Source of the DNA: Promethearchaeota archaeon
GTDB taxonomy: Archaea; Asgardarchaeota; Lokiarchaeia; Sigyniarchaeales; SOKP01
Length of the DNA: 41,299 bases
Reading direction: 5' to 3'
Assembly (NCBI GenBank): GCA_030603385.1
Contig: JAUVXW010000038.1
Coordinates: 1 to 41,299, forward strand
This document shows, piece after piece, positions 4,137 through 35,840 of the stretch. Under the pieces are notes generated by a model, which was given only the letters and a program-made list of their open reading frames with translations, was not told the origin of the DNA and did no database searches. Made by a program: the position numbers and the translations under genes. The stretch's first letter is position 1. Every line of letters begins with the position of its first letter.

Positions 4137-6077
4137 ATGGGAGAAGACGCGTTATTTTGGCAAACTCGAATTAGGTTAATCCAGGCTCCAGAACCATTTA
4201 TCCCTCAACCTACACCTGAGAATGCGGTTCCTTTTTATCAGAAGCATGAGGATATTAGGTCTTTTTTATATGATCCTTTTGGCGAAGATCCTCCTGGCAC
4301 ATATGGTCTCGAATTAAGAGCCAACGAGAATGTAGAAGTTGTTTTTTTTACGAGAGCAGAATCTCGAAATGCTGCAATCCAATTAGGTTATGCGTGGCTT
4401 ACGAATTTGAAGTACAAGTTTATAGGGTTAGATGGAGTAGTCGAAGCAGAACCAATTAAACAAGATCCTCAAGAAATCCAAAAGAATAACCATTTATTAG
4501 AAATTGAACTTCCAAGGGGATTCATTAAGAATAAGATCAACATAGTTGAGAGGTTTATTAATGCGTTTTATAGTATGAAGGATCGTGAGGTCCAATTGTT
4601 TATATTGTGGCGAAGAGAACCTCGTTCAGAGAAGTCTCAAGAGCAATCTAATTTATTCAATTTAAGAGTTATCGTAAGATATTGTTTTGAAGGTTCCAAT
4701 ACGGATGAGGAGCTGAAACTCAAAGGGATTTTACAATTTTTAGCAATGGATATAGAAAACCAGATGGGTGACCGTGCTAGGGTTATTAATCCTTCTGTTA
4801 TCTCACATAGAGAAATATTAGAAGGAAATGTTTTCAAAAACAAAGAAGAGTCCTTGAGAACTTTCGTTCAAGAAGATGTGAATTTTGATTTTCCTGAAAA
4901 TCTGCCTCTGCCAAAGCTACCTATTTTGAAAAATGAAAATGTGAGATATATAGATATTAACAGTGAGTTTAAGAATAGGGCAATCACTGTAGGAAAGCAT
5001 ATTAAAAATGGTGTTATAACGGAGCATGAGACATTTGTACCAATAAATAAACTTCCTCAAGATTTAGCTATTTTTGGGAAATCTGGTAGTGGCAAGACAT
5101 ATTTTCTTGCTCGATTTATAGATGAACTTTCGAATAAATCCAAAAATGTAGGCATTTTAGTTCTGAATGTTGCGAAAGAATCTCAAGAAATATTCTACCG
5201 CGATTTCAAAAAGGTGAAATATTCCGACGAGGATTTTCATATACCTTATTTTATTGACGCCGAGAAAGAAACCTTAAAAAAACGATTGCAGGAAACTGCT
5301 ACATATATTTGTGCTTCATTAGGTTTAAAAAATGTATTCGAAAAAATTATTTATCGTACAGAAGTAGGTTTTTTTGAATTAAAAGGTCAGCTACCGGAAT
5401 TTTTTATAGCTTTACTAAGGGGTGTGGAGACTTATATTAGAAATAACCCTTATGGTCCCGAAGAACAGGCTAATTTATTACAAGTTTTTAGGAATCGAAT
5501 GAATACTTTTGATGAAGATAAAGTTCAAGATGTATTGAAAATCACTGAGAGTTTACCGAATTGGGTTAAGGATTGGTTGAGTGGAAAAAATATTTTCCTT
5601 GATTTATCAATGTGTAGCAAATTCGTAAAAATGCTTATTGTAAATGCGATTCTTCAGCTTATAAGAACAGTTACAAAAGACAGTGAAGCAGAGGAGTTAA
5701 AATATCTCATTGTAATTGATGAGGCTCATGCTATTTTGGAAAAACCTATTACTACCAACAGCGATGACGCTGACTTTATCATGAAAGAACAAATGGCAAA
5801 AATATTCTCAGAGTTATTAAAAGAATATCGGAGCCGAGGGGCTGGATTTGTTATTGCTGATCAATCTCCCGCGCGTTTATTTGATGATGTTGTATCTCAA
5901 CCAAGTATAAAAATTATTTTTAGGGAAGATTACCCTAATAATCTTCTTTTTTCAGAAGATCCATTTGAACGGCAAATATTTACACAATTACCAAATAGGC
6001 TAGCATTAGTAATCAATGGGGCAACTGGTGAAAAATATATTATCAAAACAATAAATTATAGATTATCAAGGAAATAA
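4137..6077 (+). CDS. HerA/FtsK-superfamily (DUF87) P-loop ATPase
   Basis: Walker A GKSGSGKT, Walker B IVIDEAH, EYRSRG arginine finger, ADQSP. Confidence 0.88.
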   Translation: MGEDALFWQTRIRLIQAPEPFIPQPTPENAVPFYQKHEDIRSFLYDPFGEDPPGTYGLELRANENVEVVFFTRAESRNAAIQLGYAWLTNLKYKFIGLDGVVEAEPIKQDPQEIQKNNHLLEIELPRGFIKNKINIVERFINAFYSMKDREVQLFILWRREPRSEKSQEQSNLFNLRVIVRYCFEGSNTDEELKLKGILQFLAMDIENQMGDRARVINPSVISHREILEGNVFKNKEESLRTFVQEDVNFDFPENLPLPKLPILKNENVRYIDINSEFKNRAITVGKHIKNGVITEHETFVPINKLPQDLAIFGKSGSGKTYFLARFIDELSNKSKNVGILVLNVAKESQEIFYRDFKKVKYSDEDFHIPYFIDAEKETLKKRLQETATYICASLGLKNVFEKIIYRTEVGFFELKGQLPEFFIALLRGVETYIRNNPYGPEEQANLLQVFRNRMNTFDEDKVQDVLKITESLPNWVKDWLSGKNIFLDLSMCSKFVKMLIVNAILQLIRTVTKDSEAEELKYLIVIDEAHAILEKPITTNSDDADFIMKEQMAKIFSELLKEYRSRGAGFVIADQSPARLFDDVVSQPSIKIIFREDYPNNLLFSEDPFERQIFTQLPNRLALVINGATGEKYIIKTINYRLSRK

Positions 6078-16214: not shown

Positions 16215-17564
16215 ATGATATCTCCTATCTTTCAAAAAAAATTAATAGACGTACACTTTGCAGATATCCAATCTCTTGTTGATAATCAAATTCCAGAGTC
16301 TTACGATATAGATTATAAACAAGATTATCCTAATAGTAAGAAATTAGCAAAACTAATGGTTTCATTTGCCAATGCTTCAGGAGGATATATCATATTAGGA
16401 ATAAAAGAGAAAAAAATTAAAGATCCAATTACAAATAAAGAAAGTAAAACAGGTTTACCTGAAAAAATAATTGGGATTAATAAAGGAGATCATTCAATTA
16501 AAATAACTCAAATTATTTTAGCCCACTCACAACCAAAAATAATCCCACAAGTTCATTTTTTTGAGCATGCTCAAGATAACGATAAGGATGTTGTTATAAT
16601 AAAAATTGATGAAGCTGTAGAACCAATAATGTATTATCACGCCAATGATAAAGATAGTAATAAATTCTTTATCAGAATAAATGACAAAATAGAACCTGGA
16701 GATCAACCTCTTTTGAAAAAACTCTTCTCCTACAGACCATTTTACGAAAAAATCAGTGAAATCCAAAGAACTGTATTTGATAACCAAAATAATATTTATA
16801 GAATTTATAAAGCAGGACATCAGGAAAGGAAATATATATTATTAGGGTTAGTAGTAATTCCATTCAATAAAAACTTTCAAATTCTCGATCTTAAATCAGA
16901 AGATATTGAACACTTTATTCAGAATTTATATAATTCCCTCAATTTAGAAAACCCCTTCCAGTTAATGGTGAATTTCTCAAGTTTTTTAAGAAATTTTAAT
17001 TATATGGGGGATTATTTTAAAACTTCCTTTTTTGATGAAGGAGAAAATGAGAGTTGGTATAATAAATCAGAGCTAGATCTTTTTAGGAATGGAATAATTA
17101 AACATAATATTATATATCAAACAGTTTCAATTGCTTCTATTCATCCATATGTGAATATTCCCTTGTTAATGGAAGAGTCTAAAAAAGAAAGATTTCAAAA
17201 GGCACCATATTTGATGGGAGAATTACTAGTCTATATTTACACATGTTGGTTAAAATTAATAAAATTAGTCTTTGAAAGAGGAAATTTTGGCGGAAGATTT
17301 AATCTAACTTCCAGAATTAAATATAAGGATGATATAGCTTTAGGCATTGGGAAATACTCACCCTTAAGTCATACTAATGATATTAAAATAGAAAAAACAA
17401 TTTATACTATTGATTTATCTGGACGAGATTCTTTAAAAGCTATTCTAAAAGATATATTGAGAGAGATTTTAAGATATTTTGGATACGATTTATTAAATAT
17501 TGATACAAAACTTCAAGTTTTTGAAAGTTCAATAGATAATTATATAGATTTTATTATCGCTTAA
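16215..17564 (+). CDS. AlbA_2 (Schlafen-like) domain protein
   Basis: ESYDIDYK...LAKLMVSFANASGGYIILGIKE...FFIR. Confidence 0.85.
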   Translation: MISPIFQKKLIDVHFADIQSLVDNQIPESYDIDYKQDYPNSKKLAKLMVSFANASGGYIILGIKEKKIKDPITNKESKTGLPEKIIGINKGDHSIKITQIILAHSQPKIIPQVHFFEHAQDNDKDVVIIKIDEAVEPIMYYHANDKDSNKFFIRINDKIEPGDQPLLKKLFSYRPFYEKISEIQRTVFDNQNNIYRIYKAGHQERKYILLGLVVIPFNKNFQILDLKSEDIEHFIQNLYNSLNLENPFQLMVNFSSFLRNFNYMGDYFKTSFFDEGENESWYNKSELDLFRNGIIKHNIIYQTVSIASIHPYVNIPLLMEESKKERFQKAPYLMGELLVYIYTCWLKLIKLVFERGNFGGRFNLTSRIKYKDDIALGIGKYSPLSHTNDIKIEKTIYTIDLSGRDSLKAILKDILREILRYFGYDLLNIDTKLQVFESSIDNYIDFIIA

Positions 17565-17772
17565 AAACTCCAAACCTGTATAAATGATAAAATAAACCTA
17601 GTGATTAAATATTAAAAATGGACAAATTAAACTCATTTGTTTATTTTTTTAAAATCACTCAAATTATTTAACATTTCAACCCTATCATAATTTTCGATTT
17701 TCTTTTCACAGTTATAAATATATTTAATACTGTGTTTTTACTTAATAATCAAAACGAAATCCTGGTAATTAG

Positions 17773-18459
17773 ATGAAAGAAAAATTAAAATGGAATGCGA
17801 TTGGATTAGTTAAAAAAACCCAAATCCTTTATGACTACCTTCAAAATGAGAAAAATAATATTCCTATTGACCATACGAGTAAATCTTCAAAATTGTTAGG
17901 ATATTTAGCTGAATTGAATCATCTTCTTGAACAGATGGAAAAGATTGAAAAAATAATAATACCAAAACTTGAAAAGTTATTCCGATTGAAGTTTACTACT
18001 CCAGAACTAGTTATGTTTGCACTATCTCGCCCCAGTATTCGGAACATCTTTGACGACTTGAACAAGCATTTTAAAAGTGACGGAAATGCCCCATTGAATG
18101 AAAAAGAATTAATTGAGTTAGCAAGTTCTGGAGATGCTGCAGATGTTCTAGCCCTTTTAGGAGATGCTGCACTTGATCTAATCATTGTCCAATTATTATG
18201 GGATTCATCCTTGTCAAAAACAGGAAATCTTACCGAAAAACGACAAGAAGTTGTTTCAAATCAAAATCTTGCCAAATATTGTGATGAATGGGGATTATTC
18301 ACCTGCAGGCTCAACCGCTTAAAAGGTACTACAGAAGAAGAAGCAAAACAAGAAACTATAAATCATGAAAAAGCAACCTTAGTTGAATCAGTATTAGGAG
18401 TAATTTATCTTGAATTTGGACAAGAAGTCTTACTCAGGATAGTTCCATTGATCCAATAA
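17773..18459 (+). CDS. Ribonuclease III domain protein (Mini-III-like, no dsRBD)
   Basis: LALLGDAALDL...VSNQNLA...ATLVESVLGVIYLE. Confidence 0.85.
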   Translation: MKEKLKWNAIGLVKKTQILYDYLQNEKNNIPIDHTSKSSKLLGYLAELNHLLEQMEKIEKIIIPKLEKLFRLKFTTPELVMFALSRPSIRNIFDDLNKHFKSDGNAPLNEKELIELASSGDAADVLALLGDAALDLIIVQLLWDSSLSKTGNLTEKRQEVVSNQNLAKYCDEWGLFTCRLNRLKGTTEEEAKQETINHEKATLVESVLGVIYLEFGQEVLLRIVPLIQ

Positions 18460-18479
18460 AAATTATAAGTGAAAAACCC

Positions 18480-19307
18480 ATGTATTTAGCGTTTATTGAT
18501 GAATCAGGAACGATCCAAGAAAAAAATCCTCAGAATAATTATTATGTACTCACAACAGTGGTAATGCAAGAAAAAGGGATGAAGTACCTTCATCAAAAAA
18601 CTCAAGAACTTAAGAAAGAAATATGGAAGATTGTTCAAGGGTCAAAAAAACGAATGCCTATTCAATTTGAACTCCACATGCAAGAAATCAAGGATTCAAA
18701 GGGGTTCTTCAAGCCGTTAAGAAGTAAAAAGGATAAAGCTGAGAACATCCTGAGAAAAGTTTATAACTACATTCAAAATCTTTACATAAAAATCATTTCC
18801 ATAATTATTGTCAAAGATAAGTTTTTCGAGATTTATGATCTTGAAGAACTCTTAAAATGGGCTCTTAAATTACTTATTGAGCGCATAAATCGTTATGTCT
18901 GGGGAGAATCTAAAAATGATAAGGAATATGCTCTTTTAATAATGGATCAAGATTTTGTTCTTGATAAAAAGAAACGACAGTTTATCTCCGAAATGATGGA
19001 ACTTGGTGTTAAATACAATACAATAGATGTTGATAGAGTATTAGATACTCCAATAATTTTAAAATCTGAACTTCACAATGGAATTCAAATCGTTGATTCA
19101 GTAGCCTTTTTAATTCACAGATATACAAGAAAGAAGTTAGAAGGCAATATTTCTACGTTATTCGATGAATTATCCGATGAATTTGTTTTAAGTTTAGCCT
19201 GGAAATTCTATGGGGGTGCTCCTTCAAGTAATAATGAATCGGGGTTAAAATTCTTCCCTTCAAATTATTCACCTCCCTCCGCATATTGGGATGCCTTCTC
19301 GAAATAA
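18480..19307 (+). CDS. DUF3800 domain protein (RNase H-like fold)
   Basis: MYLAFIDESG, ELH and S....IQIVD motifs. Confidence 0.85.
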   Translation: MYLAFIDESGTIQEKNPQNNYYVLTTVVMQEKGMKYLHQKTQELKKEIWKIVQGSKKRMPIQFELHMQEIKDSKGFFKPLRSKKDKAENILRKVYNYIQNLYIKIISIIIVKDKFFEIYDLEELLKWALKLLIERINRYVWGESKNDKEYALLIMDQDFVLDKKKRQFISEMMELGVKYNTIDVDRVLDTPIILKSELHNGIQIVDSVAFLIHRYTRKKLEGNISTLFDELSDEFVLSLAWKFYGGAPSSNNESGLKFFPSNYSPPSAYWDAFSK

Positions 19308-20251: not shown

Positions 20252-20560
20252 TTATCTTAATGTTTTTTTTTTGTATATCCATTCAGTAGCATAGAGATAT
20301 CCATTTCGAACTATTAATTGACTTTTAGGGCACCATGTTCCACGTTTACCACCAATAAGTATTGCTTTTCGCGTCTGTTTTCTACGCCTTTGAGCTGGAA
20401 CCAATCTAATATACTTCTTTCCATTTTCATATATAACTTGTCCATGTTGTACTTCATGTTCTTCTCTAAAAATTATATTAAGATTATTTGGATTATTATT
20501 GAACTTATTTCCATCTTTATGATGAATGTCGTAATCAGATGCTATCGAGTCCCTATTTAT
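20252..20560 (-). pseudogene. 5'-truncated HNH endonuclease with C-terminal T.KA...W.PKS domain (absent from the ORF track)
   Basis: Manual translation: YDIHHKDGNKFNNNPNNLNIIFREEHEVQHG...ENGKKYIRL...KQTRKAILI...WCPKSQ...YLYATEWIYKK; no start codon, abuts the RM gene stop. Confidence 0.75.
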
Positions 20561-23538
20561 TATTCATATAAATATTCTCTCACAATCTGTTCACTTTCTT
20601 TAGATTTTAAGATTTTTGAGCCAATTTCATCGATTTTCGTAACTTCTTCTTGTATTACAGCCATTAATTCATGTTCCCTAATTTTCTCATTATTCCTCAC
20701 AAAATCTTCAACTTTCTGACCACATTTCTTTGATAAATTTGATATATTAAGTTGGTCTTCGTCACCAGTAAATTTAGGGATATTAAAATATAGCGGTCTT
20801 TTATGATGATGTCGAGTATCGCTAATTTTTTTTACGCTTCTTTCTAAAATCGAGTTATTAAGCATTCCACACAGGTAATAAGCCTCAAGCTCATTTTCAG
20901 TTCCATAATAGTATAATGTTGAGTCTACATAAACACGACCTTTAAGATCATGAATAACTGCTGCCGTCAATTTCTTAGCATTAGGAAACACGACTTTATA
21001 AAGTTTCCTTTGGGATGGTCGAACTATTTTATTAGTACATAGTTTATTTCTGTAATTGATGCCTACTTCAAATAGATCATTTTTTGTATTATTAAAATAA
21101 GTCTCTTTTATGGAATTCCAATGTTTTCGGCTAAAAGGACCAATCTTAGAAAGTCTATACTGAAAATTTGAATCTAAAGGCAAAAAAATGGAATATGGTT
21201 TTATATAAAATGGATATAATTCTCTTGATAATGTCGCTTTAAAGATATTTTCACTTTCTACTTGAACTTTCTTAAAGTATTTTTTTTTCCAGACTCCTTT
21301 AGCTTGAGGGGATATCCATGGATCGATGATTGATATTTTTCCTTGTTGAATTCTATTTACTACTTCACAATAGAGTAGAGATTTAGGTATTAAATCAGCC
21401 CCTTGAATAAACTCTTTATAATAATCTGATAAGAAGAAAGGTAACAATTCTTGTTTTTTCTCAGAATGTATTAATTTTTTAACTCTATATTTTTCTTTTC
21501 TTTTCTTGTGGAAATATACGTATGGTTCTAATTTGAAATCTTCAATTAATTCAAGCGTCTCAGAATCTAAATATTTACAATTGATTGGATATTTATTGAA
21601 CACATCATCTTGGTTTATTTTGATATCATTATAATTAGCAAAAATACAACAACAATCTATATTAAAAATCAAGTCATTAAATTCGAAAAATTCTATATTA
21701 AAGAAAGCATCAAACCTTCTCGCTTTTTCATTTTGAGATGAAACAAGTAAAGAACGAGGCATTATAAAAGCTATTTTTCCATTTCCATCTTTCCTTAAGT
21801 ATAAATCAGGTATTTTATAAAGAAACACCACTGCTTCTTCGATATTTGTTATATTTTTAGCATCAGGTCTGATATCAAATTGTTCAGTGATTTTTTTCAT
21901 ATTTTCTTGTAATTTCTTATCAGCATCTTTGTATGTTAGCCAAGGGGGATTTGTGATTATTAAATCCATCTTTTTCTTTAATAAGAGTAAATGAATACCA
22001 ACTAAATTATTTAGAATATATAACCAGATATGATCTTTATCTTGCTCTTTTAATACATATAATTCTTCGAAAAATTTTAGTATATATTGATATTCTATTT
22101 CATTTGAATCAAGAAAAGAAGATATAACATTTGTATCAATAGCTCTAATAGCTGCATCCCATGTATCTTTAAAACTATCAAATGTTTCCCATACTCGATA
22201 AAGTGAATCTAGAACAATTTGAAAAGATTCAATATTATTCTGAGTTAATGCACTTCCAGGGATTCGTAGCTCTAGCTCTTCATCCAATAAATCTATACAG
22301 AATGAATAGTAACTTCCTAATTCTATATCCGCATACGAAGCAAATTCTATTGGATCAATAGAATTACATAAATATACGTTTATGAATATATCTTCAATAA
22401 ATCTTTCTCTTGATTTAAAATATAATAATAAGTTAGCTTTGGTAGTAAGAACAGCAATAGGATTAATATCAAACCCAAAAATATTATTAACAGCCTTAAA
22501 CCATTCTTTTGGAGGTCTTTCATTAATGGTAAAATCAAATTGTGAATCAATTTTTTTGCAGGTTTCAATTAAAAATGTTCCCGATCCACAAGATGAATCT
22601 AACACGCGATCACCTAAATCATATGCTTTATTAACCATTTTTCTGCAGAGAATTTCAGGTGTGTAATATTCTCCTAACCGATGACGCACTCCAGCTATAA
22701 TCATTTCTTGATAGATTGTTCTAAAAATATCCGTTGCTTCAAAATTCATTATTTTTAACTTTTCAAAATAATCATCACAAAAATCTTTAACATTTATAAC
22801 CCAGCGAAAAAAATCATAATGGAACAATGATATTCCCAATTTCTCAAAATAGCCTTCCAAATCCTTAAAGTAATCACGGGAATATTCCTCGGGATCCATA
22901 AACTCTTTGTATAATATTAATTTTAGTAGTGTACTAAGATATGAATGTCTAAGGAATAGTTCTTTTCCAACTTCTTCATCATGATATGCTAGTCTAAAAT
23001 GGTTTTTCCATTGTTCAAAACACACATTTCCCTTTCTATAACGATCATCAAAATGTTTCTCCAATCTAGAATAAGCTAAGATGTATAATGGTGAATTCAC
23101 TCCAAATAATACGGCAAATTGATCAGAATTTACACTTTTTGGTTCGAGAAGACATTCTATTAATGATATAATTGATTTTCTATCGATTTCGCGATCATTT
23201 CTTAATGCTAAGTCTTTATCATAATAATAAATATTCTTTTCAGATATTACAATTAATAAAGAGGGATTTTTACCTCTTTTTTTCAAATACTCTTGGATAT
23301 ATTGGCTACCTTTCGTTAAGGCCCATTGATTTATTTCTCGCTTTTTCAGCTTATATTTAAAGTCAATAATTATATCTCCAATTAAACAATCTGGTTTACC
23401 CTTTAACAATCTTTGCTGTGGCTGATATTGTAATTCTAATTTATCAAATAAACTATCAAACAAATGCTCAATTTGATACTCGTTTTGAGCACGTTTAATC
23501 AAGTTTATGTCGATTTCAATGTCTTTTAGGGTTGCCAT
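20560..23538 (-). CDS. Type IIG-like restriction-modification fusion (endonuclease + N6-adenine MTase + specificity region)
   Basis: N-terminal KPD...IDFK; GEYYTP, DSSCGSGTFL, GFDINP, TNPPW. Confidence 0.88.
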   Translation of the reverse strand: MATLKDIEIDINLIKRAQNEYQIEHLFDSLFDKLELQYQPQQRLLKGKPDCLIGDIIIDFKYKLKKREINQWALTKGSQYIQEYLKKRGKNPSLLIVISEKNIYYYDKDLALRNDREIDRKSIISLIECLLEPKSVNSDQFAVLFGVNSPLYILAYSRLEKHFDDRYRKGNVCFEQWKNHFRLAYHDEEVGKELFLRHSYLSTLLKLILYKEFMDPEEYSRDYFKDLEGYFEKLGISLFHYDFFRWVINVKDFCDDYFEKLKIMNFEATDIFRTIYQEMIIAGVRHRLGEYYTPEILCRKMVNKAYDLGDRVLDSSCGSGTFLIETCKKIDSQFDFTINERPPKEWFKAVNNIFGFDINPIAVLTTKANLLLYFKSRERFIEDIFINVYLCNSIDPIEFASYADIELGSYYSFCIDLLDEELELRIPGSALTQNNIESFQIVLDSLYRVWETFDSFKDTWDAAIRAIDTNVISSFLDSNEIEYQYILKFFEELYVLKEQDKDHIWLYILNNLVGIHLLLLKKKMDLIITNPPWLTYKDADKKLQENMKKITEQFDIRPDAKNITNIEEAVVFLYKIPDLYLRKDGNGKIAFIMPRSLLVSSQNEKARRFDAFFNIEFFEFNDLIFNIDCCCIFANYNDIKINQDDVFNKYPINCKYLDSETLELIEDFKLEPYVYFHKKRKEKYRVKKLIHSEKKQELLPFFLSDYYKEFIQGADLIPKSLLYCEVVNRIQQGKISIIDPWISPQAKGVWKKKYFKKVQVESENIFKATLSRELYPFYIKPYSIFLPLDSNFQYRLSKIGPFSRKHWNSIKETYFNNTKNDLFEVGINYRNKLCTNKIVRPSQRKLYKVVFPNAKKLTAAVIHDLKGRVYVDSTLYYYGTENELEAYYLCGMLNNSILERSVKKISDTRHHHKRPLYFNIPKFTGDEDQLNISNLSKKCGQKVEDFVRNNEKIREHELMAVIQEEVTKIDEIGSKILKSKESEQIVREYLYE

Positions 23539-23593
23539 AATATTATTATTATTTTTTGATTATTTAAATCGTATTCTGGTTTTTCACTCATCA

Positions 23594-24104
23594 ACTGGAT
23601 GGTGGAAATATATTTCTTGATTTATCAATATGCAGTAAATTTGTTAAAATGTTAATTGTAAATGCAATTTTTCAGCTTATAATTACAGTTACAAAAGATA
23701 ATGAGGCAGAAGAGTTAAAGTATCTTATTGTTATTGATGAGGCTCACGCTATTTTGGAAAATCCCATTACTACAAACAGCGATGATGCTGACTTTATCAT
23801 GAAAGAACAGATGGCTAAAATATTTTCTGAATTATTTAAAGAATATATTGAAAATATGATAATTGAAGCATCCACCAAGGGAATAAAGATTAAAGAATGG
23901 AGAGATCGAAATACGTTTGAGAAAGATGGGAAAAAATATATTCCTTTGTGCAGACTTAATAAAATTTATCATGAAACCCTAAAAGCCTACTTAGTTTGGT
24001 CTGATCAATGGATTCCTAAATCAATTTCGTATAAAGATAAGAAGTATTTATATTGTGAAGAATGGATGTATAAAAGGATTGAAAATGGTTTCAAAGAAAA
24101 ATGA
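23594..24104 (+). pseudogene. Chimera: internal HerA fragment (copy of 5572-5827) fused in frame to a T.KA...W.PKS domain
   Basis: MLIVNAI.QLI.TVTKD.EAEELKYLIVIDEAHAILE.PITTNSDDADFIMKEQMAKIFSEL.KEY nearly identical to ORF 4137, then unrelated sequence. Confidence 0.85.
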
Positions 24105-24437
24105 TCTATTGTGACTTTGCGAATTGATCAATCGATCATGAAATCATGATTTGCATAAATGTTAGTAAATTTAAAATAAATTAAAATTACTATATTTTTA
24201 CCAATATTTTAGGCCATCTTCTTCCCCAATTATCATTTATGATTTATAATCTCAATGCTTTTATACTTTTCTACATTTTTTCATTTAACAAAAGCGGTGT
24301 AGGTAAGGACTTACAAAAACTAGGTAGTAATGGAAAATTTGAAGAAAAAAATAATTATTTTATGGAAATCGTTCAAGATATAAAAAAACTAGTAAAAGAA
24401 CATCATCAAATATGAAAGATTTTCAAATTGATATTAT

Positions 24438-24521
24438 GGTGGGGTTCCCGAGTGGTTAAAGGGACTAGATTACCAATCTAGCGGCTAAGAGCCTTCGTGG
24501 GTTCGAATCCCACCCCCAATT
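24438..24521 (+). tRNA. Atypical type II tRNA (Leu-like body, anticodon ACC = Gly), possibly a pseudo-tRNA
   Basis: D arm CCC-GAGTGGTTAAA-GGG; anticodon arm CTAGA-TTACCAA-TCTAG; variable arm GGCT-AAG-AGCC; T arm GTGGG-TTCGAAT-CCCAC; acceptor GGTGGGG/CCCCAAT with a G2.A71 mismatch. Confidence 0.8.
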
Positions 24522-24682
24522 ATATTATAATACAATAGGATTATATAGAACTAATCATCACCACTCGTTTTATATAGAATCTCAATACAACTAATTAATT
24601 TAATTAAATTTTGCAAAGAAAAGCATAAATACGGTTTTCAATATATTTCTTTTAGACAGGAAATAAAAAAGAATGAAAAAGA

Positions 24683-25264
24683 ATGGAGAGAGAGTTATCC
24701 GAAAGAGAATTTAGGGAATTTATTGAAGTTGGATTATCAAATGCGGGATATTTCTCGTGTGTCATCCAATATAAAAGCAGAGATGCAATAGCCTGGTATA
24801 CGGCTCTAAGAATAGGAGAAATAATTTCAAACTATTATAAAGCAAAAATGAGCGAAGTAGTAAAGATACATTTAAACCTTCAAGTAATTAAAGTTATAGA
24901 TAAGATAAACGAGATGATGAAAAATGACGTATTACTTATAACTGTTGACAATAAAAATATTAAACCTTTAAGTCAATACCTAATCACGGAATTGCTTATT
25001 AAAAAGAAGAATCTAATCTTCATTTCAAAACGAGAAAATCCCCTAAGCAAACCATTTAAGGAAATCACTAATGTAGTTATAGATGTATACACTTTAAGCC
25101 AGAATAAAATAAACTGTATAATTAACATAAATGAAATCGGTGATAGAGGATTTAAACTAACACTTCCTAACAGATCACTGATTGAAAACTATCAATCTCT
25201 TCGTACAGCTTTAATAAAGGAATCCATAAGAAGACAAGTTCCAGAGCTTGAAGATCAAGAATAA
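24683..25264 (+). CDS. Hypothetical protein, possibly a degenerate viral-type P-loop ATPase
   Basis: 193-aa ORF; YTALRIGE and LIFIS segments but no intact Walker A or B. Confidence 0.55.
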   Translation: MERELSEREFREFIEVGLSNAGYFSCVIQYKSRDAIAWYTALRIGEIISNYYKAKMSEVVKIHLNLQVIKVIDKINEMMKNDVLLITVDNKNIKPLSQYLITELLIKKKNLIFISKRENPLSKPFKEITNVVIDVYTLSQNKINCIININEIGDRGFKLTLPNRSLIENYQSLRTALIKESIRRQVPELEDQE

Positions 25265-25341
25265 ATAATATTTTTTTAGTGTAAAGATTCTTAGACTTCC
25301 TCTGAAAATTAGAGTAAACCCATATGAATTTTAACTCGTTG

Positions 25342-26043
25342 TTAAATAAGTTCAAAAAATTCGCTTATGAGAGAGAACATTTTTGTGCGGGTGGCTTCTA
25401 AAAATGTTATTGCGTCACGTTCATCATCTTTTAACCTAAAAGATACGCTTTTCCTAATTTTATGAGATATACTGGGATTAATTTTAGCCCTTTGTATCAT
25501 TTCGTCAATCATCTTATCTTTTACGTCATCAGTTTCTCTAATTTTACCTAGGTCTTCTGCCCAAGACATTTTTCCTCTAAAAGACTCAATAAGATGAATG
25601 TTAAAATCTTTGCGTACTTGTTCAGAAAATCGTTCATGCTTTCCTTTTCCAACCATTCTACTTAAATCAAATAACCATTGGTACTTTTTATTTGTGAAAA
25701 CTTGATGGTTTAAAAGAAAATCATACATATGAGGATCTTTGTTCTTTAAATTCTTCATCTTTTGCCATTCTAATCTGTTTTCAAAAGAACTTCTCTTTTC
25801 ATATATGGGAAAATATACTGGAACATGTTCATCTTTGTACAAACATAGATATTTTTTATCCCAATATATCCGAAAGGAATGATCCAGAATATTTCGGTAT
25901 TTTTCAATTATTTCATGCGTAATGTTTTTTGCTTTTTCTGAAATGTTACCTGACTCAATGCATTTCTTATATTCTTTCATTAAATCACCTATCAGTTCTT
26001 CTGCTCGATTAAACATGGAAGTAATACTTTCAGGAATCTTCAT
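25342..26043 (-). CDS. Hypothetical protein
   Basis: 233-aa ORF; R..LD, YFPI and KH motifs, possibly HEPN-like. Confidence 0.7.
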   Translation of the reverse strand: MKIPESITSMFNRAEELIGDLMKEYKKCIESGNISEKAKNITHEIIEKYRNILDHSFRIYWDKKYLCLYKDEHVPVYFPIYEKRSSFENRLEWQKMKNLKNKDPHMYDFLLNHQVFTNKKYQWLFDLSRMVGKGKHERFSEQVRKDFNIHLIESFRGKMSWAEDLGKIRETDDVKDKMIDEMIQRAKINPSISHKIRKSVSFRLKDDERDAITFLEATRTKMFSLISEFFELI

Positions 26044-26124
26044 TAGAACATTATCGATTTTTTAATCTAAATCTCTGTCTCATATTTAATCTTCCCCTTA
26101 ATAGTAATATTATCTTGGCTAAAA

Positions 26125-26775
26125 TTAGAACTTATTTGAACTTACATATTTGACAATTCTATTAAGTTCAGCATTAGCCATTCGTTTATTTAAATCATGT
26201 ATATATCCAATAATTTTAGCATAGACACATACCACATGAATAAACTTTTCTTGTGAAAATAGGGAAAGGGTATACTGAGAATCTACTAATTCTTTACGAT
26301 ACTTACCCTTATCATATTTTTTATATTTCTTTTTGTTGATATAATCCATTAATTTATCTTTATTTTCTGTTTCTAACGTCCCGTGAGCACACTTTTGGTC
26401 TTTTTCTTCTAAAAAACCTAACTTTTCCTTCTTTAATTTCCTACCTATTTTATATATCTCCCCAATATCTCTTTTCCCCATTCGGTCAGCAAAATGTTTT
26501 TCACGTCCATGAACAACCTTAATTACATCAAAATGAGCAAATACTTTAATCTGGGGGTATTTTTCAGTACCAGAATACTTATAACCAAAGGATAAATGAA
26601 GATGGTATCGACCAGCTTTGGTTTTTCGCACAAATACTTCAGTAGGAATGATTTTGTCTTCCACCCTTATGGATTTATTATTCGAACCGATATGTTCATA
26701 TCCAAGTTCCTTAAAAAACTGATAGATACGACTCTCTTCAACCCCATAATTTTTTCGGAAATTAACTCGTACCAT
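26125..26775 (-). CDS. Hypothetical basic protein
   Basis: 216-aa ORF, His/Lys-rich. Confidence 0.7.
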   Translation of the reverse strand: MVRVNFRKNYGVEESRIYQFFKELGYEHIGSNNKSIRVEDKIIPTEVFVRKTKAGRYHLHLSFGYKYSGTEKYPQIKVFAHFDVIKVVHGREKHFADRMGKRDIGEIYKIGRKLKKEKLGFLEEKDQKCAHGTLETENKDKLMDYINKKKYKKYDKGKYRKELVDSQYTLSLFSQEKFIHVVCVYAKIIGYIHDLNKRMANAELNRIVKYVSSNKF

Positions 26776-26959
26776 CCAAATCCCTAATTTATTGTTTTAA
26801 AGAGGAATTATTATTCATTATAAGACTGCTTATAAATTTAAATTCATCTCAAGGGTAAAAAAAAAAGGAAGTAAAAAAAATAAATTGGATTAGTAATATT
26901 TATTTCCTTAGGCATCCCAAGTGTAATTAAGAATATTGGATAAATATTCGAAAAGAAAA

Positions 26960-32933: not shown

Positions 32934-35840
32934 TTGAAGAATAATACAAAATATTTGATTTTAATGCTGATCGCAATTACACTAACTTTTCTTAATATTA
33001 AGATATTACCACATCAATCCATTGAAGGAAAAGATTCCCTTGAGGTTATTACTCCACAACCTCCCAGAGTATCTCCTGTTTATTACGAAGATACGGCCGG
33101 ATTAGCACGTGGCATTTACTTGAGCGGAGATTACGCCTACGTGGCTGTTGGGAGCTGGGGCTTAGCGGTCATTGACATTTCCGATCCGACAAATCCGGGA
33201 TACCCCCGCTACAGCGTCACAACCGGATGGTCACGGGACATCTACGTGAGCGGAGATTATGCCTATATGGCTGATAATACTTCGGGCTTGGCGGTCATTG
33301 ACATCTCCGACCCAATAATCCCGGGAACACCCGTCTATGAACCCACGACCTCATTGGCATGCGGTGTTTACGTGAGCGGAAATTATGCCTATGTAGCGGA
33401 TGATGAAGAAGGCTTGGCGGTCATTGATATATCCAACCCGACAAACCCGGGAACGCCCGACTACAGAAACACGACCGGATCTGCATATGGCATTTACGTG
33501 AGCGGAGATTATGCCTACGTGGCTGATGGGGGCTCTGGCTTGGCGGTCATTGATATTTCCAACCCGACCAACCCTGGAACGCCTGTCTACGAAGACACGA
33601 CCGGATCTGCGTATGATGTTTACGTTAGCGGAGATTACGCCTACGTGGCTGATGGGAGCTCGGGCTTGGCAGTCATTGACATTTCCGATCCGACAAATCC
33701 GGGACCGCCCGTCTACGAAGACACGACCGGATCTGCAAATGACGTTTACGTGAGCGGAGATTACGCCTACGTGGCTGATGGGAGCTCTGGCTTGGCGGTC
33801 ATTAACATTTCCGACCCGACTAACCCGGGAATGTTCTTCTACGAAGACACGACTGATAATGCCCTTGGCGTTCACGTGAGCGGAAGTTATGCCTACGTGG
33901 CTGATGAGAGCTCTGGCTTGGCGGTCATCAAAGTTTCCGACCCGATCAGCCTGGGAACGCCCATCTACGAAGACACGACCGGATTTGCATATGACGTTTA
34001 CGTGAGCGGAGATTACGCCTACGTGGCTGTTGGGTACTCTGGCTTGGCGGTCATTGACATTTCCGACCCGACCAACCCGGGACCAACCTTCTACGAAGAT
34101 ACGACCGGAACTGCGTATGATGTTTACGTTAGCGGAGATTACGCCTACGTGGCTGATGGGTACGATGGCTTGGCGGTCATTGACATTTCCGACCCAACAA
34201 ATCCAGGAACACCCAATTATTACCTTACAACTGATGCTCGTGGCGTGTACGTGAGTGGAGATTATGCCTATGTAGCGGATGCTTCGATCAATGGCTTGTG
34301 GGTCATTGATATTTCCGACCCGACCAACCCAAGACTCGCCGATATCCAAATGGGTAATATATTAGACGTTTACGTGAGCGGAGATTACGCCTACGCGGCT
34401 GGTTTTTCCAGTGGCTTGTTTGTATTTGATATTTCCGACCCTTTCGGCTCGGGAGTGCCGATCTCCAGCGAGGACACGACTGGTTATGCACGTGGCATTT
34501 ACGTGAGCGGAGATTATGCCTATGTAGCGGATGATGAAGAAGGCTTGGCGGTCATTGATATATCCAACCCGACAAACCCGGGAACGCCCGACTACAGAAA
34601 CACGACCGGATCTGCATATGGCATTTACGTGAGCGGAGATTACGCCTATGTAGCAGATGAGGCCTCGGGCTTGGCAGTCATCGACATTTCCGATCCGACC
34701 AACCCAGGAACGCGCATCTACAAAGACACGACCGGATCTGCACGTGGCATTCACGTGGACCAGGATTACGCCTATGTAGCCGATGGAATTTCGGGCTTGG
34801 CGGTCATTCAAGTAAGACAACTAATTGATGAGTGGAATCCTGTAATTACCGATTTACCTAGCGATCTTTCCGTCGAATACAGCTACACTGGGCAGAGTCT
34901 ATCATGGACTGCGATTGATGCTAACCCAGATATATATACCATCGAATTGGAAGGAACAGGAATAGTAGATGGTCCGAATGTATGGACGTACGGAAATACA
35001 ATTACCTACAACATCCCCGAGGGATTTAGCCTAGGATCCTACATTTACACGGTTAACTTCACAGATCTTCGGGGCCATTTCGTTACCGACAGCGTCAATT
35101 TTGAAGTAGGTGCAGACACGATCGATCCAACAATAATTAGCGCTCCAAGCGATTTCATTTTGGAATTCGGATACACGGGGCAGAGCCTGTCGTGGACGGC
35201 AACTGATCCCAATCCTGACACTTACACGATTGAACTCCAAGGGTCAGGAATAATAGATGGTCCGAATGTATGGACGAGCGGAAACGCAATTACCTACAAC
35301 ATCCCTAATGGATTTAGCCTAGGATCGTACATTTACACGGTTAACTTCACGGACGACTTTGGTAATTCTAAAATTGACAGCGTTACATTTACAGTAGATG
35401 ACACTATTGCTCCTATAATTATGATTAATTCTCCAAATACCAATGATGAATTTGGCACTCTTGCTCCAGCATATGAAATTTCCATCAATGATCCACATTT
35501 AGATAAAATTTGGTATACGCTAGATGGAGGTCTTACTAATATTACAACTGCAAGTGTATCAGGACCAATAAATGAAGCTATTTGGGAAGGGATTTCAGAA
35601 GGTCCTGTAACTATAAGATTTTATGCTAACGATACATTAGGAAACATCGATTATAACGAAGTTACTGTAATAAAATCTGTACCAGCTAAAGACTCAGACA
35701 ATTTTTGGAAAGATTTGATGCAACAAGGACTATTAATCCCTATAGTTGGAGCTGGTGTAGGAGGTATAATTGGGATAGCTTTTTTCATTATTAAGAGGAA
35801 GTTAAAGAAAAAGGGAGAGAAAGTTGGTGTTGCTGCATAA
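32934..35840 (+). CDS. Cell-surface LVIVD-repeat protein (14 repeats, two Ig-like modules, C-terminal TM)
   Basis: 14 x ~42-aa VYVSGDYAYVAD..GLAVIDISDP repeats; signal peptide; TM plus basic tail. Confidence 0.92.
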   Translation: MKNNTKYLILMLIAITLTFLNIKILPHQSIEGKDSLEVITPQPPRVSPVYYEDTAGLARGIYLSGDYAYVAVGSWGLAVIDISDPTNPGYPRYSVTTGWSRDIYVSGDYAYMADNTSGLAVIDISDPIIPGTPVYEPTTSLACGVYVSGNYAYVADDEEGLAVIDISNPTNPGTPDYRNTTGSAYGIYVSGDYAYVADGGSGLAVIDISNPTNPGTPVYEDTTGSAYDVYVSGDYAYVADGSSGLAVIDISDPTNPGPPVYEDTTGSANDVYVSGDYAYVADGSSGLAVINISDPTNPGMFFYEDTTDNALGVHVSGSYAYVADESSGLAVIKVSDPISLGTPIYEDTTGFAYDVYVSGDYAYVAVGYSGLAVIDISDPTNPGPTFYEDTTGTAYDVYVSGDYAYVADGYDGLAVIDISDPTNPGTPNYYLTTDARGVYVSGDYAYVADASINGLWVIDISDPTNPRLADIQMGNILDVYVSGDYAYAAGFSSGLFVFDISDPFGSGVPISSEDTTGYARGIYVSGDYAYVADDEEGLAVIDISNPTNPGTPDYRNTTGSAYGIYVSGDYAYVADEASGLAVIDISDPTNPGTRIYKDTTGSARGIHVDQDYAYVADGISGLAVIQVRQLIDEWNPVITDLPSDLSVEYSYTGQSLSWTAIDANPDIYTIELEGTGIVDGPNVWTYGNTITYNIPEGFSLGSYIYTVNFTDLRGHFVTDSVNFEVGADTIDPTIISAPSDFILEFGYTGQSLSWTATDPNPDTYTIELQGSGIIDGPNVWTSGNAITYNIPNGFSLGSYIYTVNFTDDFGNSKIDSVTFTVDDTIAPIIMINSPNTNDEFGTLAPAYEISINDPHLDKIWYTLDGGLTNITTASVSGPINEAIWEGISEGPVTIRFYANDTLGNIDYNEVTVIKSVPAKDSDNFWKDLMQQGLLIPIVGAGVGGIIGIAFFIIKRKLKKKGEKVGVAA

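Follow-up and report, generated by a model that had tools for sequence, protein, structure and literature searches.

A Leu-like class II tRNA gene with a glycine-type ACC anticodon loop in an Asgard archaeon, and a family of phage tRNAs of similar design

In a contig of a Promethearchaeota archaeon (Asgardarchaeota; Lokiarchaeia; GenBank JAUVXW010000038.1), we analysed a tRNA gene whose anticodon contradicts its body. The stretch under study, which we call the window, is 41,299 nucleotides (nt) long and is the entire contig (C19) of a 3.9-Mb genome that is 94% complete. The gene, at 24438-24521 on the plus strand, is a real, well-folded class II tRNA gene (one with a long variable arm) with anticodon ACC, without an intron and without an encoded CCA; we refer to it as tRNA(ACC). 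Its body resembles archaeal tRNA-Leu, its anticodon loop is of the glycine type, and its acceptor end is irregular. The reading that we favour, with roughly even confidence and on comparative sequence evidence, is that tRNA(ACC) would be a disabled or strongly attenuated missense-type tRNA that stands outside normal decoding. A family of phage tRNAs with the same loop on a Leu-shaped body, described below, is a more robust lead than this singleton.

ARAGORN finds a single tRNA in the window, at 24438-24521 on the plus strand, and labels it tRNA-Gly(acc); the Rfam tRNA model RF00005 covers the same interval end to end with 43.4 bits (gathering score 29, E = 4e-6). The RNA is 84 nt long and has 7/5 geometry (7-bp acceptor stem, 5-bp T stem), and its minimum free energy fold is the cloverleaf (z = -2.07 against shuffles). 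The 5′ strand of the acceptor stem (nt 1-7; 24438-24444) is followed by a D arm with a 3-bp stem (24447-24464), a perfect 5-bp anticodon stem (24465-24469 and 24477-24481) that encloses the anticodon loop (24470-24476, with ACC at 24472-24474), a 15-nt variable region (24482-24496) made up of a 4-bp stem, an AAG loop and a UU-C base, and a perfect T arm (24497-24513). The nucleotides U8, A14, G18-G19, A21, G15/C48, U33, A37, U54-A58 and C56 are all in place. The gene has a G+C content of 54%, compared with about 28% in its flanks, and the A+T-richness of the surrounding DNA makes promoter or terminator signals near the gene uninformative. Irregularity is confined to the acceptor end, where a G1-U72 pair, a G2/A71 mismatch and a U3-A70 pair precede four G-C pairs, and where the discriminator is U73 (24521). 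The sequence-only reading of this DNA had the coordinates right, and each of its structural statements agrees with the cloverleaf: the 5-bp anticodon stem, the UU-ACC-AA loop, the long variable arm and the imperfect acceptor end.

The host's other detectable tRNAs are archaeal, with frequent introns. In those that were confidently detected, the acceptor stem is fully paired, positions 1-72 and 2-71 included, in 20 of 20 cases, and none of the 20 has A34. The nine intron-less host tRNAs score 61-67 bits with the Rfam model, all above the 43.4 bits of tRNA(ACC), which lies about 20 bits under the intron-less tRNA-Leu (63.5) and tRNA-Ser (62.6) of the host.

The anticodon loops of glycine tRNAs typically read U32-U33-N-C-C-A37-A38. 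The loop of tRNA(ACC), U32 U33 A34 C35 C36 A37 A38, has this NCC arrangement; it agrees with the tRNA-Gly consensus at six of seven positions and differs from the loop of the host tRNA-Gly(CCC) only at nt 34. It lacks what tRNA-Leu requires here, namely an NAG or YAA anticodon and G37. On the other hand, tRNA-Gly has a class I body with a variable region of 4-5 nt, whereas that of tRNA(ACC) has 15 nt and a stem. Deriving this loop from a Leu or Tyr loop takes four or five specific substitutions within 7 nt, and all 17 base pairs outside the acceptor end are undisturbed. This combination argues against random decay and for a loop that was selected in an ancestor to decode GGN codons. Judged by these comparisons, the glycine-type loop appears once to have been under selection for GGN decoding in an ancestor of the present gene.

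A34 tRNAs are mostly absent from archaea (PMC4928997). We considered conversion of A34 to inosine and rejected it, since neither the TadA family nor the cytidine/deoxycytidylate deaminase families have a match in the 94%-complete host genome. With no such deaminase detected, A34 should stay A, and the unmodified nucleotide should read mainly GGU on the ribosome. GGU makes up 33% of the host's glycine codons, or about 20 per 1000 codons. A host tRNA-Gly(GCC) was not found by our searches, tRNA detection being poor in this genus because of introns. Rfam tRNA matches number 23-24 each in the host genome and in a one-contig genome of the same genus (G006), and many tRNAs of both, including tRNA-Gly(GCC), escape ARAGORN and Rfam, presumably through multiple or unusual introns.

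The body of tRNA(ACC) is Leu-like, as the sequence-only reading had proposed, although not exclusively so. In BLAST searches of 400 Asgard genomes, its best full-length matches are tRNA-Leu genes with 74-79% identity, and over 26 nt, from the end of the variable arm through the T arm to nt 66-69, tRNA-Leu of several other Asgard families is 100% identical to tRNA(ACC). The T arm, which had been described as similar to that of archaeal tRNA-Leu, is identical to it, and is identical too in tRNA-Ser, both within the genus and in other Asgard families. The variable region has the length usual for archaeal tRNA-Leu, and the AG tip of its loop is seen in 7 of 8 Leu variable arms from Asgard archaea, DPANN archaea and the host. 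In a maximum likelihood tree of 65 class II tRNAs, tRNA(ACC) is sister to the archaeal Leu clade (support 0.86), and that clade falls within a cluster to which the bacterial Tyr genes belong as well (support 0.94), in a tree built from short sequences with a Tyr sample that is biased because it was picked by D-arm identity.

Bacterial tRNA-Tyr accounts for the remaining likeness. The 20 nt at 24445-24464, which contain the D arm, recur exactly in four phage tRNA-Tyr genes and in more than 120 GTDB genomes; among the 120 matches listed, bacterial tRNA-Tyr(GTA) accounts for 117 and a tRNA-Leu(CAA) of a DPANN archaeon for one. The 5′ acceptor strand is a common bacterial Tyr strand, found in 15 of 120 bacterial tRNA-Tyr among the matches listed, and is of the G1/G2/U3 type of tRNA-Tyr. 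The best overall identity of tRNA(ACC), 69 of 84 positions, is to a bacterial tRNA-Tyr of Ignatzschineria. However, the GUA anticodon, A73 and the paired positions 1-72 and 2-71 of tRNA-Tyr are replaced by ACC, U73, G1-U72 and G2/A71. To sum up the comparison, tRNA(ACC) shares the T arm, nt 66-69 (with Asgard members) and the AG-tipped variable loop with archaeal tRNA-Leu, and the D arm and 5′ acceptor strand with bacterial tRNA-Tyr; it differs from both in having U73 rather than A73 and a glycine-type loop, and from tRNA-Leu in having A37 rather than G37. The body would therefore best be described as archaeal-Leu-like and nearly equally close to bacterial tRNA-Tyr, with its ancestry not settled. 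A recent paralogue of a host tRNA can be ruled out, as only the T arm matches the host tRNA-Leu(CAA) and tRNA-Ser(GCU).

The gene is a singleton. BLAST found no full-length match in 53 genomes of the same genus and no full-length homologue in the 400 Asgard genomes; as a positive control, the same method found the host tRNA-Cys in 17 of 36 same-genus genomes (83-100% identity). A search of the 400 Asgard genomes, limited to one T-loop pattern, gave no further class II tRNA with an NCC loop. In JGI metagenome contigs, a pattern scan for the end of the D arm plus the ACC loop returned five matches, all due to chance and none a tRNA, and two scans of IMG/VR for the D-arm type of tRNA(ACC) with any NCC loop returned no relatives. 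The homologues in Asgard genomes and viruses that the sequence-only reading had thought worth seeking were thus not found. Syntenic loci of relatives that share the flanking genes have no tRNA, and neither do the seven contigs with homologues of the gene to the right of tRNA(ACC) or the three with homologues of the open reading frame (ORF) to its left (both described below). Homology to two related contigs (L409 and L411) stops at about 24084, and a 99%-identical contig (L177) starts at about 24629, which delimits a segment of about 540 nt (24085-24628, no strand assigned) without a counterpart in the related contigs found. More widely, positions 24000-26800 have no match in the genus except for two short stretches at about 26.1 and 26.5 kb. 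A contaminant contig is ruled out because restriction-modification (R-M), HerA-like and other genes on both sides match the same genus (69-88% DNA identity). From this distribution, tRNA(ACC) is most likely a lineage-specific gene that was acquired horizontally.

The unique segment also contains both copies of a 10-nt direct repeat. One copy (24514-24523) consists of the 3′ acceptor strand (24514-24520), U73 (24521) and 2 trailer nt, so that the last 8 nt of the tRNA (nt 66-73) lie within it. The other, 100% identical, is intergenic at 24224-24233 on the same, plus strand, 214 nt upstream of the 5′ end of the tRNA. The copies are 290 nt apart from start to start, with 280 nt between them. Counting both strands, the genome has 18 occurrences of the 10-mer (2.3 per Mb per strand), which puts the nominal chance of another copy within 500 nt at about 0.002. 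These observations suggest that the repeat marks the joining of a tRNA-bearing piece through the C-run of the acceptor strand. It is possible that nt 71-73 were replaced at this joint, or that its own 3′ end served a small tRNA-carrying element as the attachment site. Like the attachment (att) repeats of genomic islands integrated into tRNA genes, this is a direct repeat that holds a tRNA 3′ end, but it measures only 10 nt, the partial copy is upstream rather than downstream, and only 280 nt, with neither integrase nor cargo, separate the copies. The sequence-only reading had raised a duplicate of the 3′ end outside the window and a relic whose 3′ end was altered by integration; the duplicate exists, although inside the window and upstream, and this gives the idea of a relic with an altered 3′ end some support.

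Other explanations of the 3′ end did not hold up. A longer tandem duplication upstream (collinear repeats D1, D3 and D6) scored no better than shuffles, and only the 10-mer stands. A CCA followed by a T run, about 42 nt 3′ of the tRNA, would restore C71, C72 and A73, but in a hand check a hidden 3′ exon gave no bulge-helix-bulge in either splice register, the 4-nt central helix being unable to pair, and the apparent conservation of the CCA/T-run motif in a related contig (L178) vanished in a proper alignment. A permuted arrangement with the acceptor end supplied from upstream was also rejected, as no complementary ACC(A) is present upstream.

The identity elements of tRNA(ACC) bear on whether it could be charged. 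The discriminator of archaeal tRNA-Leu must be A73, and here it is U73. In every organism tRNA-Leu keeps A73, and so do 115 of 115 of the nematode tRNAs known as nev-tRNAs; substitution of A73 strongly lowers leucylation, to which two nucleotides at the tip of the variable arm also contribute (PMC3333845). For leucyl-tRNA synthetase (LeuRS), then, the tip of the variable arm of tRNA(ACC) fits and A73 is absent. The acceptor identity of tRNA-Gly consists of C2-G71, G3-C70 and the discriminator. For glycyl-tRNA synthetase (GlyRS), C35 and C36 of tRNA(ACC) fit, whereas the acceptor positions (G2/A71, U3-A70, U73) do not; a human tRNA-Gly(ACC) is charged by GlyRS (PMC4928997). Seryl-tRNA synthetase (SerRS) uses G73 (PMC7609411), which tRNA(ACC) lacks, and for cysteinyl-tRNA synthetase U73 fits but the anticodon does not. 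None of the identity sets for Leu, Ser, Gly or Cys is complete. Together with the two weak terminal pairs and the low Rfam score, this makes poor or no aminoacylation the most likely outcome. The suggestion of the sequence-only reading that this is a missense tRNA reading GGU as Leu or Ser is thereby weakened, given that tRNA(ACC) has neither the A73 of Leu nor the G73 of Ser and that its acceptor stem begins with two weak pairs.

Leu-shaped tRNAs with the same loop are found on viral DNA. A scan of IMG/VR for an ACC loop at class II distance from the T loop yielded tRNAs of bacterial Leu shape with the identical 7-nt loop. A second scan, which used only the 5′ end of these phage tRNAs as query, found 12 tRNA-bearing phage contigs of 28-30% G+C, and the ACC loop was present in 12 of 12. 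Loci of the family are L195:8338-8421, L201:10857-10940, L218:2116-2199 and, on the minus strand, L234:6632-6715, L289:3946-4029 and L295:7043-7126, with further ones on L331, L332, L334, L336 and L340. These phage tRNAs are 84 nt long and have intact acceptor stems and A73, with a G1-U72 pair in L295. Between lineages, four anticodon-stem pairs and one T-stem pair have changed on both sides, while the loop is fixed. The contigs are those of tailed phages with terminase and portal genes, and GGT makes up 13-28% of their glycine codons. Reassignment of this codon in the phages was rejected: reading GGT as Leu lowered the profile scores of four of four phage proteins (for the portal, from 116 to 81.8 bits), so that GGT still means glycine. 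Two further Leu-like tRNAs at phage or prophage loci (L199:88-173 and L247:1866-1951) have the same ACC loop with disrupted terminal acceptor pairs, reminiscent of the acceptor end of tRNA(ACC); both group with the phage family in the tree, and one of them stands at the very start of a provirus contig. The family has no match among isolated phages, and we found no description of it in the literature searched.

These contigs show that an ACC glycine loop on a Leu-shaped body is a design that recurs, and has been selected, on viral DNA. The phage tRNAs resemble tRNA(ACC) in their 84-nt class II body, their loop, their A+T-rich genomes and their location on mobile or viral DNA. They differ in having a D arm like that of bacterial tRNA-Leu (A15-U48 type), an intact acceptor, A73 and conservation in 12 contigs, and are not homologous to tRNA(ACC) in detail. 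The recurrence of the design raises the prior that tRNA(ACC) descends from a functional ancestor of that kind. The viral origin that had been suggested for tRNA(ACC) thus gains indirect support from its singleton status in a unique segment and from the analogous phage tRNAs, but no relative of the gene itself was found in IMG/VR.

Among published systems, the nearest case is that of the nematode nev-tRNAs, class II tRNAs that stem from tRNA-Leu and have a Gly(CCC) or an Ile(UAU) anticodon (PMC3333845, PMC4300185). They are charged with Leu, and nev-tRNA-Gly reads GGG as Leu in vitro (PMC3333845), although no mistranslation was detectable in vivo (PMC3333845, PMC4300185). As described by Hamashima et al. 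(2012, 2015), they share with tRNA(ACC) a class II body derived from tRNA-Leu, a glycine anticodon, 7/5 geometry and 7-nt loops; the tip of the variable arm matters to LeuRS, the tRNAs are weakly expressed, and their role in vivo is unclear. tRNA(ACC) is likewise a 7/5 class II tRNA with a class I anticodon and, in the tree (support 0.86, with the short sequences and biased sample noted above), stands beside archaeal tRNA-Leu. By contrast, nev-tRNAs are eukaryotic, nematode-wide, always A73 and mostly directed at rare codons (GGG), whereas tRNA(ACC) is archaeal, has U73, a weak acceptor end and A34, would read the frequent codon GGU, and is a singleton among the 53 same-genus and 400 Asgard genomes rather than conserved across a lineage. 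The allo-tRNAs are also long-armed, with ill-fitting anticodons, and frequently have toxin-antitoxin or transposon genes nearby (Mukai et al. 2017, PMC5389517); many of them are possibly unused in translation (PMC5389517). However, they are bacterial, have 8/4 or 9/3 rather than 7/5 geometry, and mostly have Ser identity (G73). Finally, the tRNA-ProX of Streptomyces and Kitasatospora are natural dual-identity missense tRNAs, all of them with A34 (reviewed in PMC11415595), which they have in common with tRNA(ACC). They have class I tRNA-Pro bodies with A33 and a dedicated synthetase, ProRSx, whereas no synthetase gene is near tRNA(ACC).

The surroundings of tRNA(ACC) are rich in defence genes, with a type IIG R-M system on the left and orphan genes and a HerA-like ATPase on the right. 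The left neighbour is an orphan ORF of 151 amino acids (aa) (23649-24104, plus strand), which by sequence comparison is a mosaic of two modules. Its first 200-240 nt are 87% identical to positions 5588-5828 of the window, in the 3′ part of a HerA-like gene (4137-6077), and stretches like 5588-5828 recur in many genomes of the genus; its second half has matches of 88-90% on other metagenome contigs. Both halves recur elsewhere without a tRNA, and the region has the appearance of a hot spot of recombination, in which variable tails follow a conserved head. The right neighbour, a 193-aa orphan gene (24683-25264, plus strand), is the first of a three-gene module whose other members lie on the minus strand (25342-26043 and 26125-26775) and which recurs on other contigs, again without a tRNA. 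In JGI contigs (L181, L182 and L183), homologues of the 193-aa gene are once more one gene away from a type IIG R-M gene, as in the window (20560-25264), and the protein may belong to the type IIG R-M defence unit. At 16215-19307 and 261-626, the window also encodes a Schlafen/AlbA_2-domain protein, an RNase III-domain protein beside a DUF3800 protein, and a MazF-like toxin. In eukaryotes, Schlafen proteins cleave class II tRNAs. The sequence-only reading had put tRNA(ACC) at the right edge of a defence island and allowed for an anti-defence role; we find it within a variable, defence-rich stretch rather than clearly at an edge, and saw nothing in favour of such a role. A search of the whole window for segments complementary to the anticodon arm gave complementary or identical stretches of 9-10 nt at best (E > 2), and no antisense RNA that would mask tRNA(ACC) was found there.

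We suggest the following account. tRNA(ACC) would be an acquired class II gene, with an archaeal-Leu-shaped body and a complete glycine-type loop whose A34 would read GGU, and would belong to the long-armed tRNAs with mismatched anticodons that are found on mobile DNA. Its acceptor end would have become defective at an insertion or recombination joint marked by the 10-nt repeat, leaving G1-U72, G2/A71 and U73 where two Watson-Crick pairs and A73 would be expected. Synthesis and folding of the RNA may persist, yet it would be a poor substrate for LeuRS, which needs A73, for SerRS, which needs G73, and for GlyRS, because of the acceptor pairs. Several points weigh against this account. Apart from nt 71-73 the gene has no sign of decay, with its high G+C content in a 28% background and its tertiary nucleotides intact, so that it would be either recent or still under selection; and as a singleton it gives no covariation by which to gauge selection or decay. 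G1-U72 is also present in L295, a member of the functional-looking phage family, and a weak first pair thus need not disable a tRNA. The case for poor charging rests on identity rules measured in other organisms. As to the joint, the repeat is only 10 nt long, the alignment of its flanks is not significant, no empty site was found, and no integrase domain is present among the 30 window ORFs scanned.

The same structure could instead belong to an active missense tRNA, one that LeuRS would charge through the variable arm (or another, U73-tolerant enzyme would charge) so as to insert Leu or another residue at GGU, with low activity by design. We consider this unlikely. Its cloverleaf outside the acceptor end and its glycine-type loop are suited to decoding, the AG-tipped variable loop is that of archaeal tRNA-Leu, and the loop recurs on the Leu-shaped bodies of a conserved phage family; precedents exist in nev-tRNA-Gly (PMC3333845), in tRNA-ProX with A34 (PMC11415595) and in allo-tRNAs at toxin-antitoxin loci (PMC5389517). 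In its setting of R-M, HerA-like, RNase III-domain, Schlafen/AlbA_2 and MazF genes, an active version could be a translation-poisoning effector of the abortive-infection type or a device for stress-induced mistranslation. However, U73 replaces the A73 that is kept in all nev-tRNAs and is important for leucylation, GGU is so frequent that even a modest activity would carry a cost, the vicinity has no antisense or other evident control element, and no relative has conserved the gene. A bolder form, in which tRNA(ACC) would be a working missense tRNA that puts Leu or another residue at GGU, kept to low activity by its odd acceptor end and serving on the defence island to poison translation or to cause mistranslation under stress, and the phage family the virus-side version of the same device, seems to us quite unlikely; if it were true, tRNAs with a Leu body and a Gly anticodon would be a recurrent weapon in virus-host conflict across two domains.

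Harmless or non-translational roles appear more doubtful again. An extra glycine tRNA with a class II body, which GlyRS would recognize through C35 and C36 and which would serve the frequent codon GGU, perhaps as a leftover of virus cargo, would explain the agreement of the loop with the glycine consensus, and the continued use of GGT for glycine in the phages makes a glycine-accepting role the harmless one there. We know of no class II tRNA-Gly, though, and by established knowledge pairs 2-71 and 3-70 and the discriminator fall outside the tRNA-Gly identity set; the gene is a singleton, and its A34 is of a kind mostly absent from archaea (PMC4928997), all of which makes this role improbable. 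We hold it to be no more probable that the gene serves as a decoy or sponge for a tRNA-cleaving nuclease of defence or counter-defence, or as the attachment site of a small integrative element. The direct repeat at the 3′ end, the nuclease-rich surroundings and the broken acceptor ends of L199 and L247, one of them at the edge of a provirus contig, are consistent with such functions, but we found no integrase, no second, longer repeat and no nuclease partner, and a glycine-type loop with intact tertiary nucleotides would be superfluous in a mere DNA site. Still less probable is a pseudogene of a tRNA-Tyr that the archaeon took up from a bacterium or phage. This would account for the 5′ acceptor strand and 20-nt D arm identical to bacterial tRNA-Tyr, for the best global identity (69/84) being to Ignatzschineria tRNA-Tyr, and for nt 71-73 being the only differences from the Tyr acceptor stem. 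Against it, the Tyr genes compared were selected by D-arm identity, the variable region has 15 nt, where Tyr mostly has 13, and ends in an AG tip, Asgard tRNA-Leu has the identical T arm and nt 66-69 and the tree places the gene with archaeal Leu, no CCA is encoded, and the anticodon loop is not that of a decaying tRNA-Tyr.

Codon reassignment and deliberate mistranslation have a natural raw material in class II tRNAs with an anticodon at odds with the body. The examples recorded so far come from nematodes (nev-tRNAs), some bacteria (allo-tRNAs, tRNA-ProX) and yeasts. The Leu-shaped Asgard tRNA with a glycine-type loop and the phage family together suggest that mobile DNA repeatedly gives rise to this chimera. 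Should either version be charged and put to use, sense-codon ambiguity or class II glycine tRNAs would gain a new case; should the archaeal copy be dead, which we think most likely, it would still be a footprint of such tRNAs circulating among mobile elements of Asgard archaea.

Some further features of the genome deserve mention. On another contig (C51:425-446, minus strand), an isolated 22-nt fragment of a tRNA-Gly 3′ end, comprising half of the T arm and the acceptor strand, lies in A+T-rich surroundings and may be either a scar left by integration or the final exon of a gene with heavy interruption. The host's only detected tRNA-Cys(GCA) (C36:146039-146124, plus strand) is itself class II-like, with an extra arm of 13-14 nt and U73; position 55 of its T loop is G, and its D loop lacks the usual GG. 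Its orthologues (L184-L193; 83-100% identity, in 17 of 36 same-genus genomes) have compensatory changes in the acceptor and T stems. Within the window, an island of 50% G+C at 32934-35840 is not an RNA gene and encodes a 968-aa protein with 13 LVIVD repeats, which correspond to a tandem array of 126-nt units.

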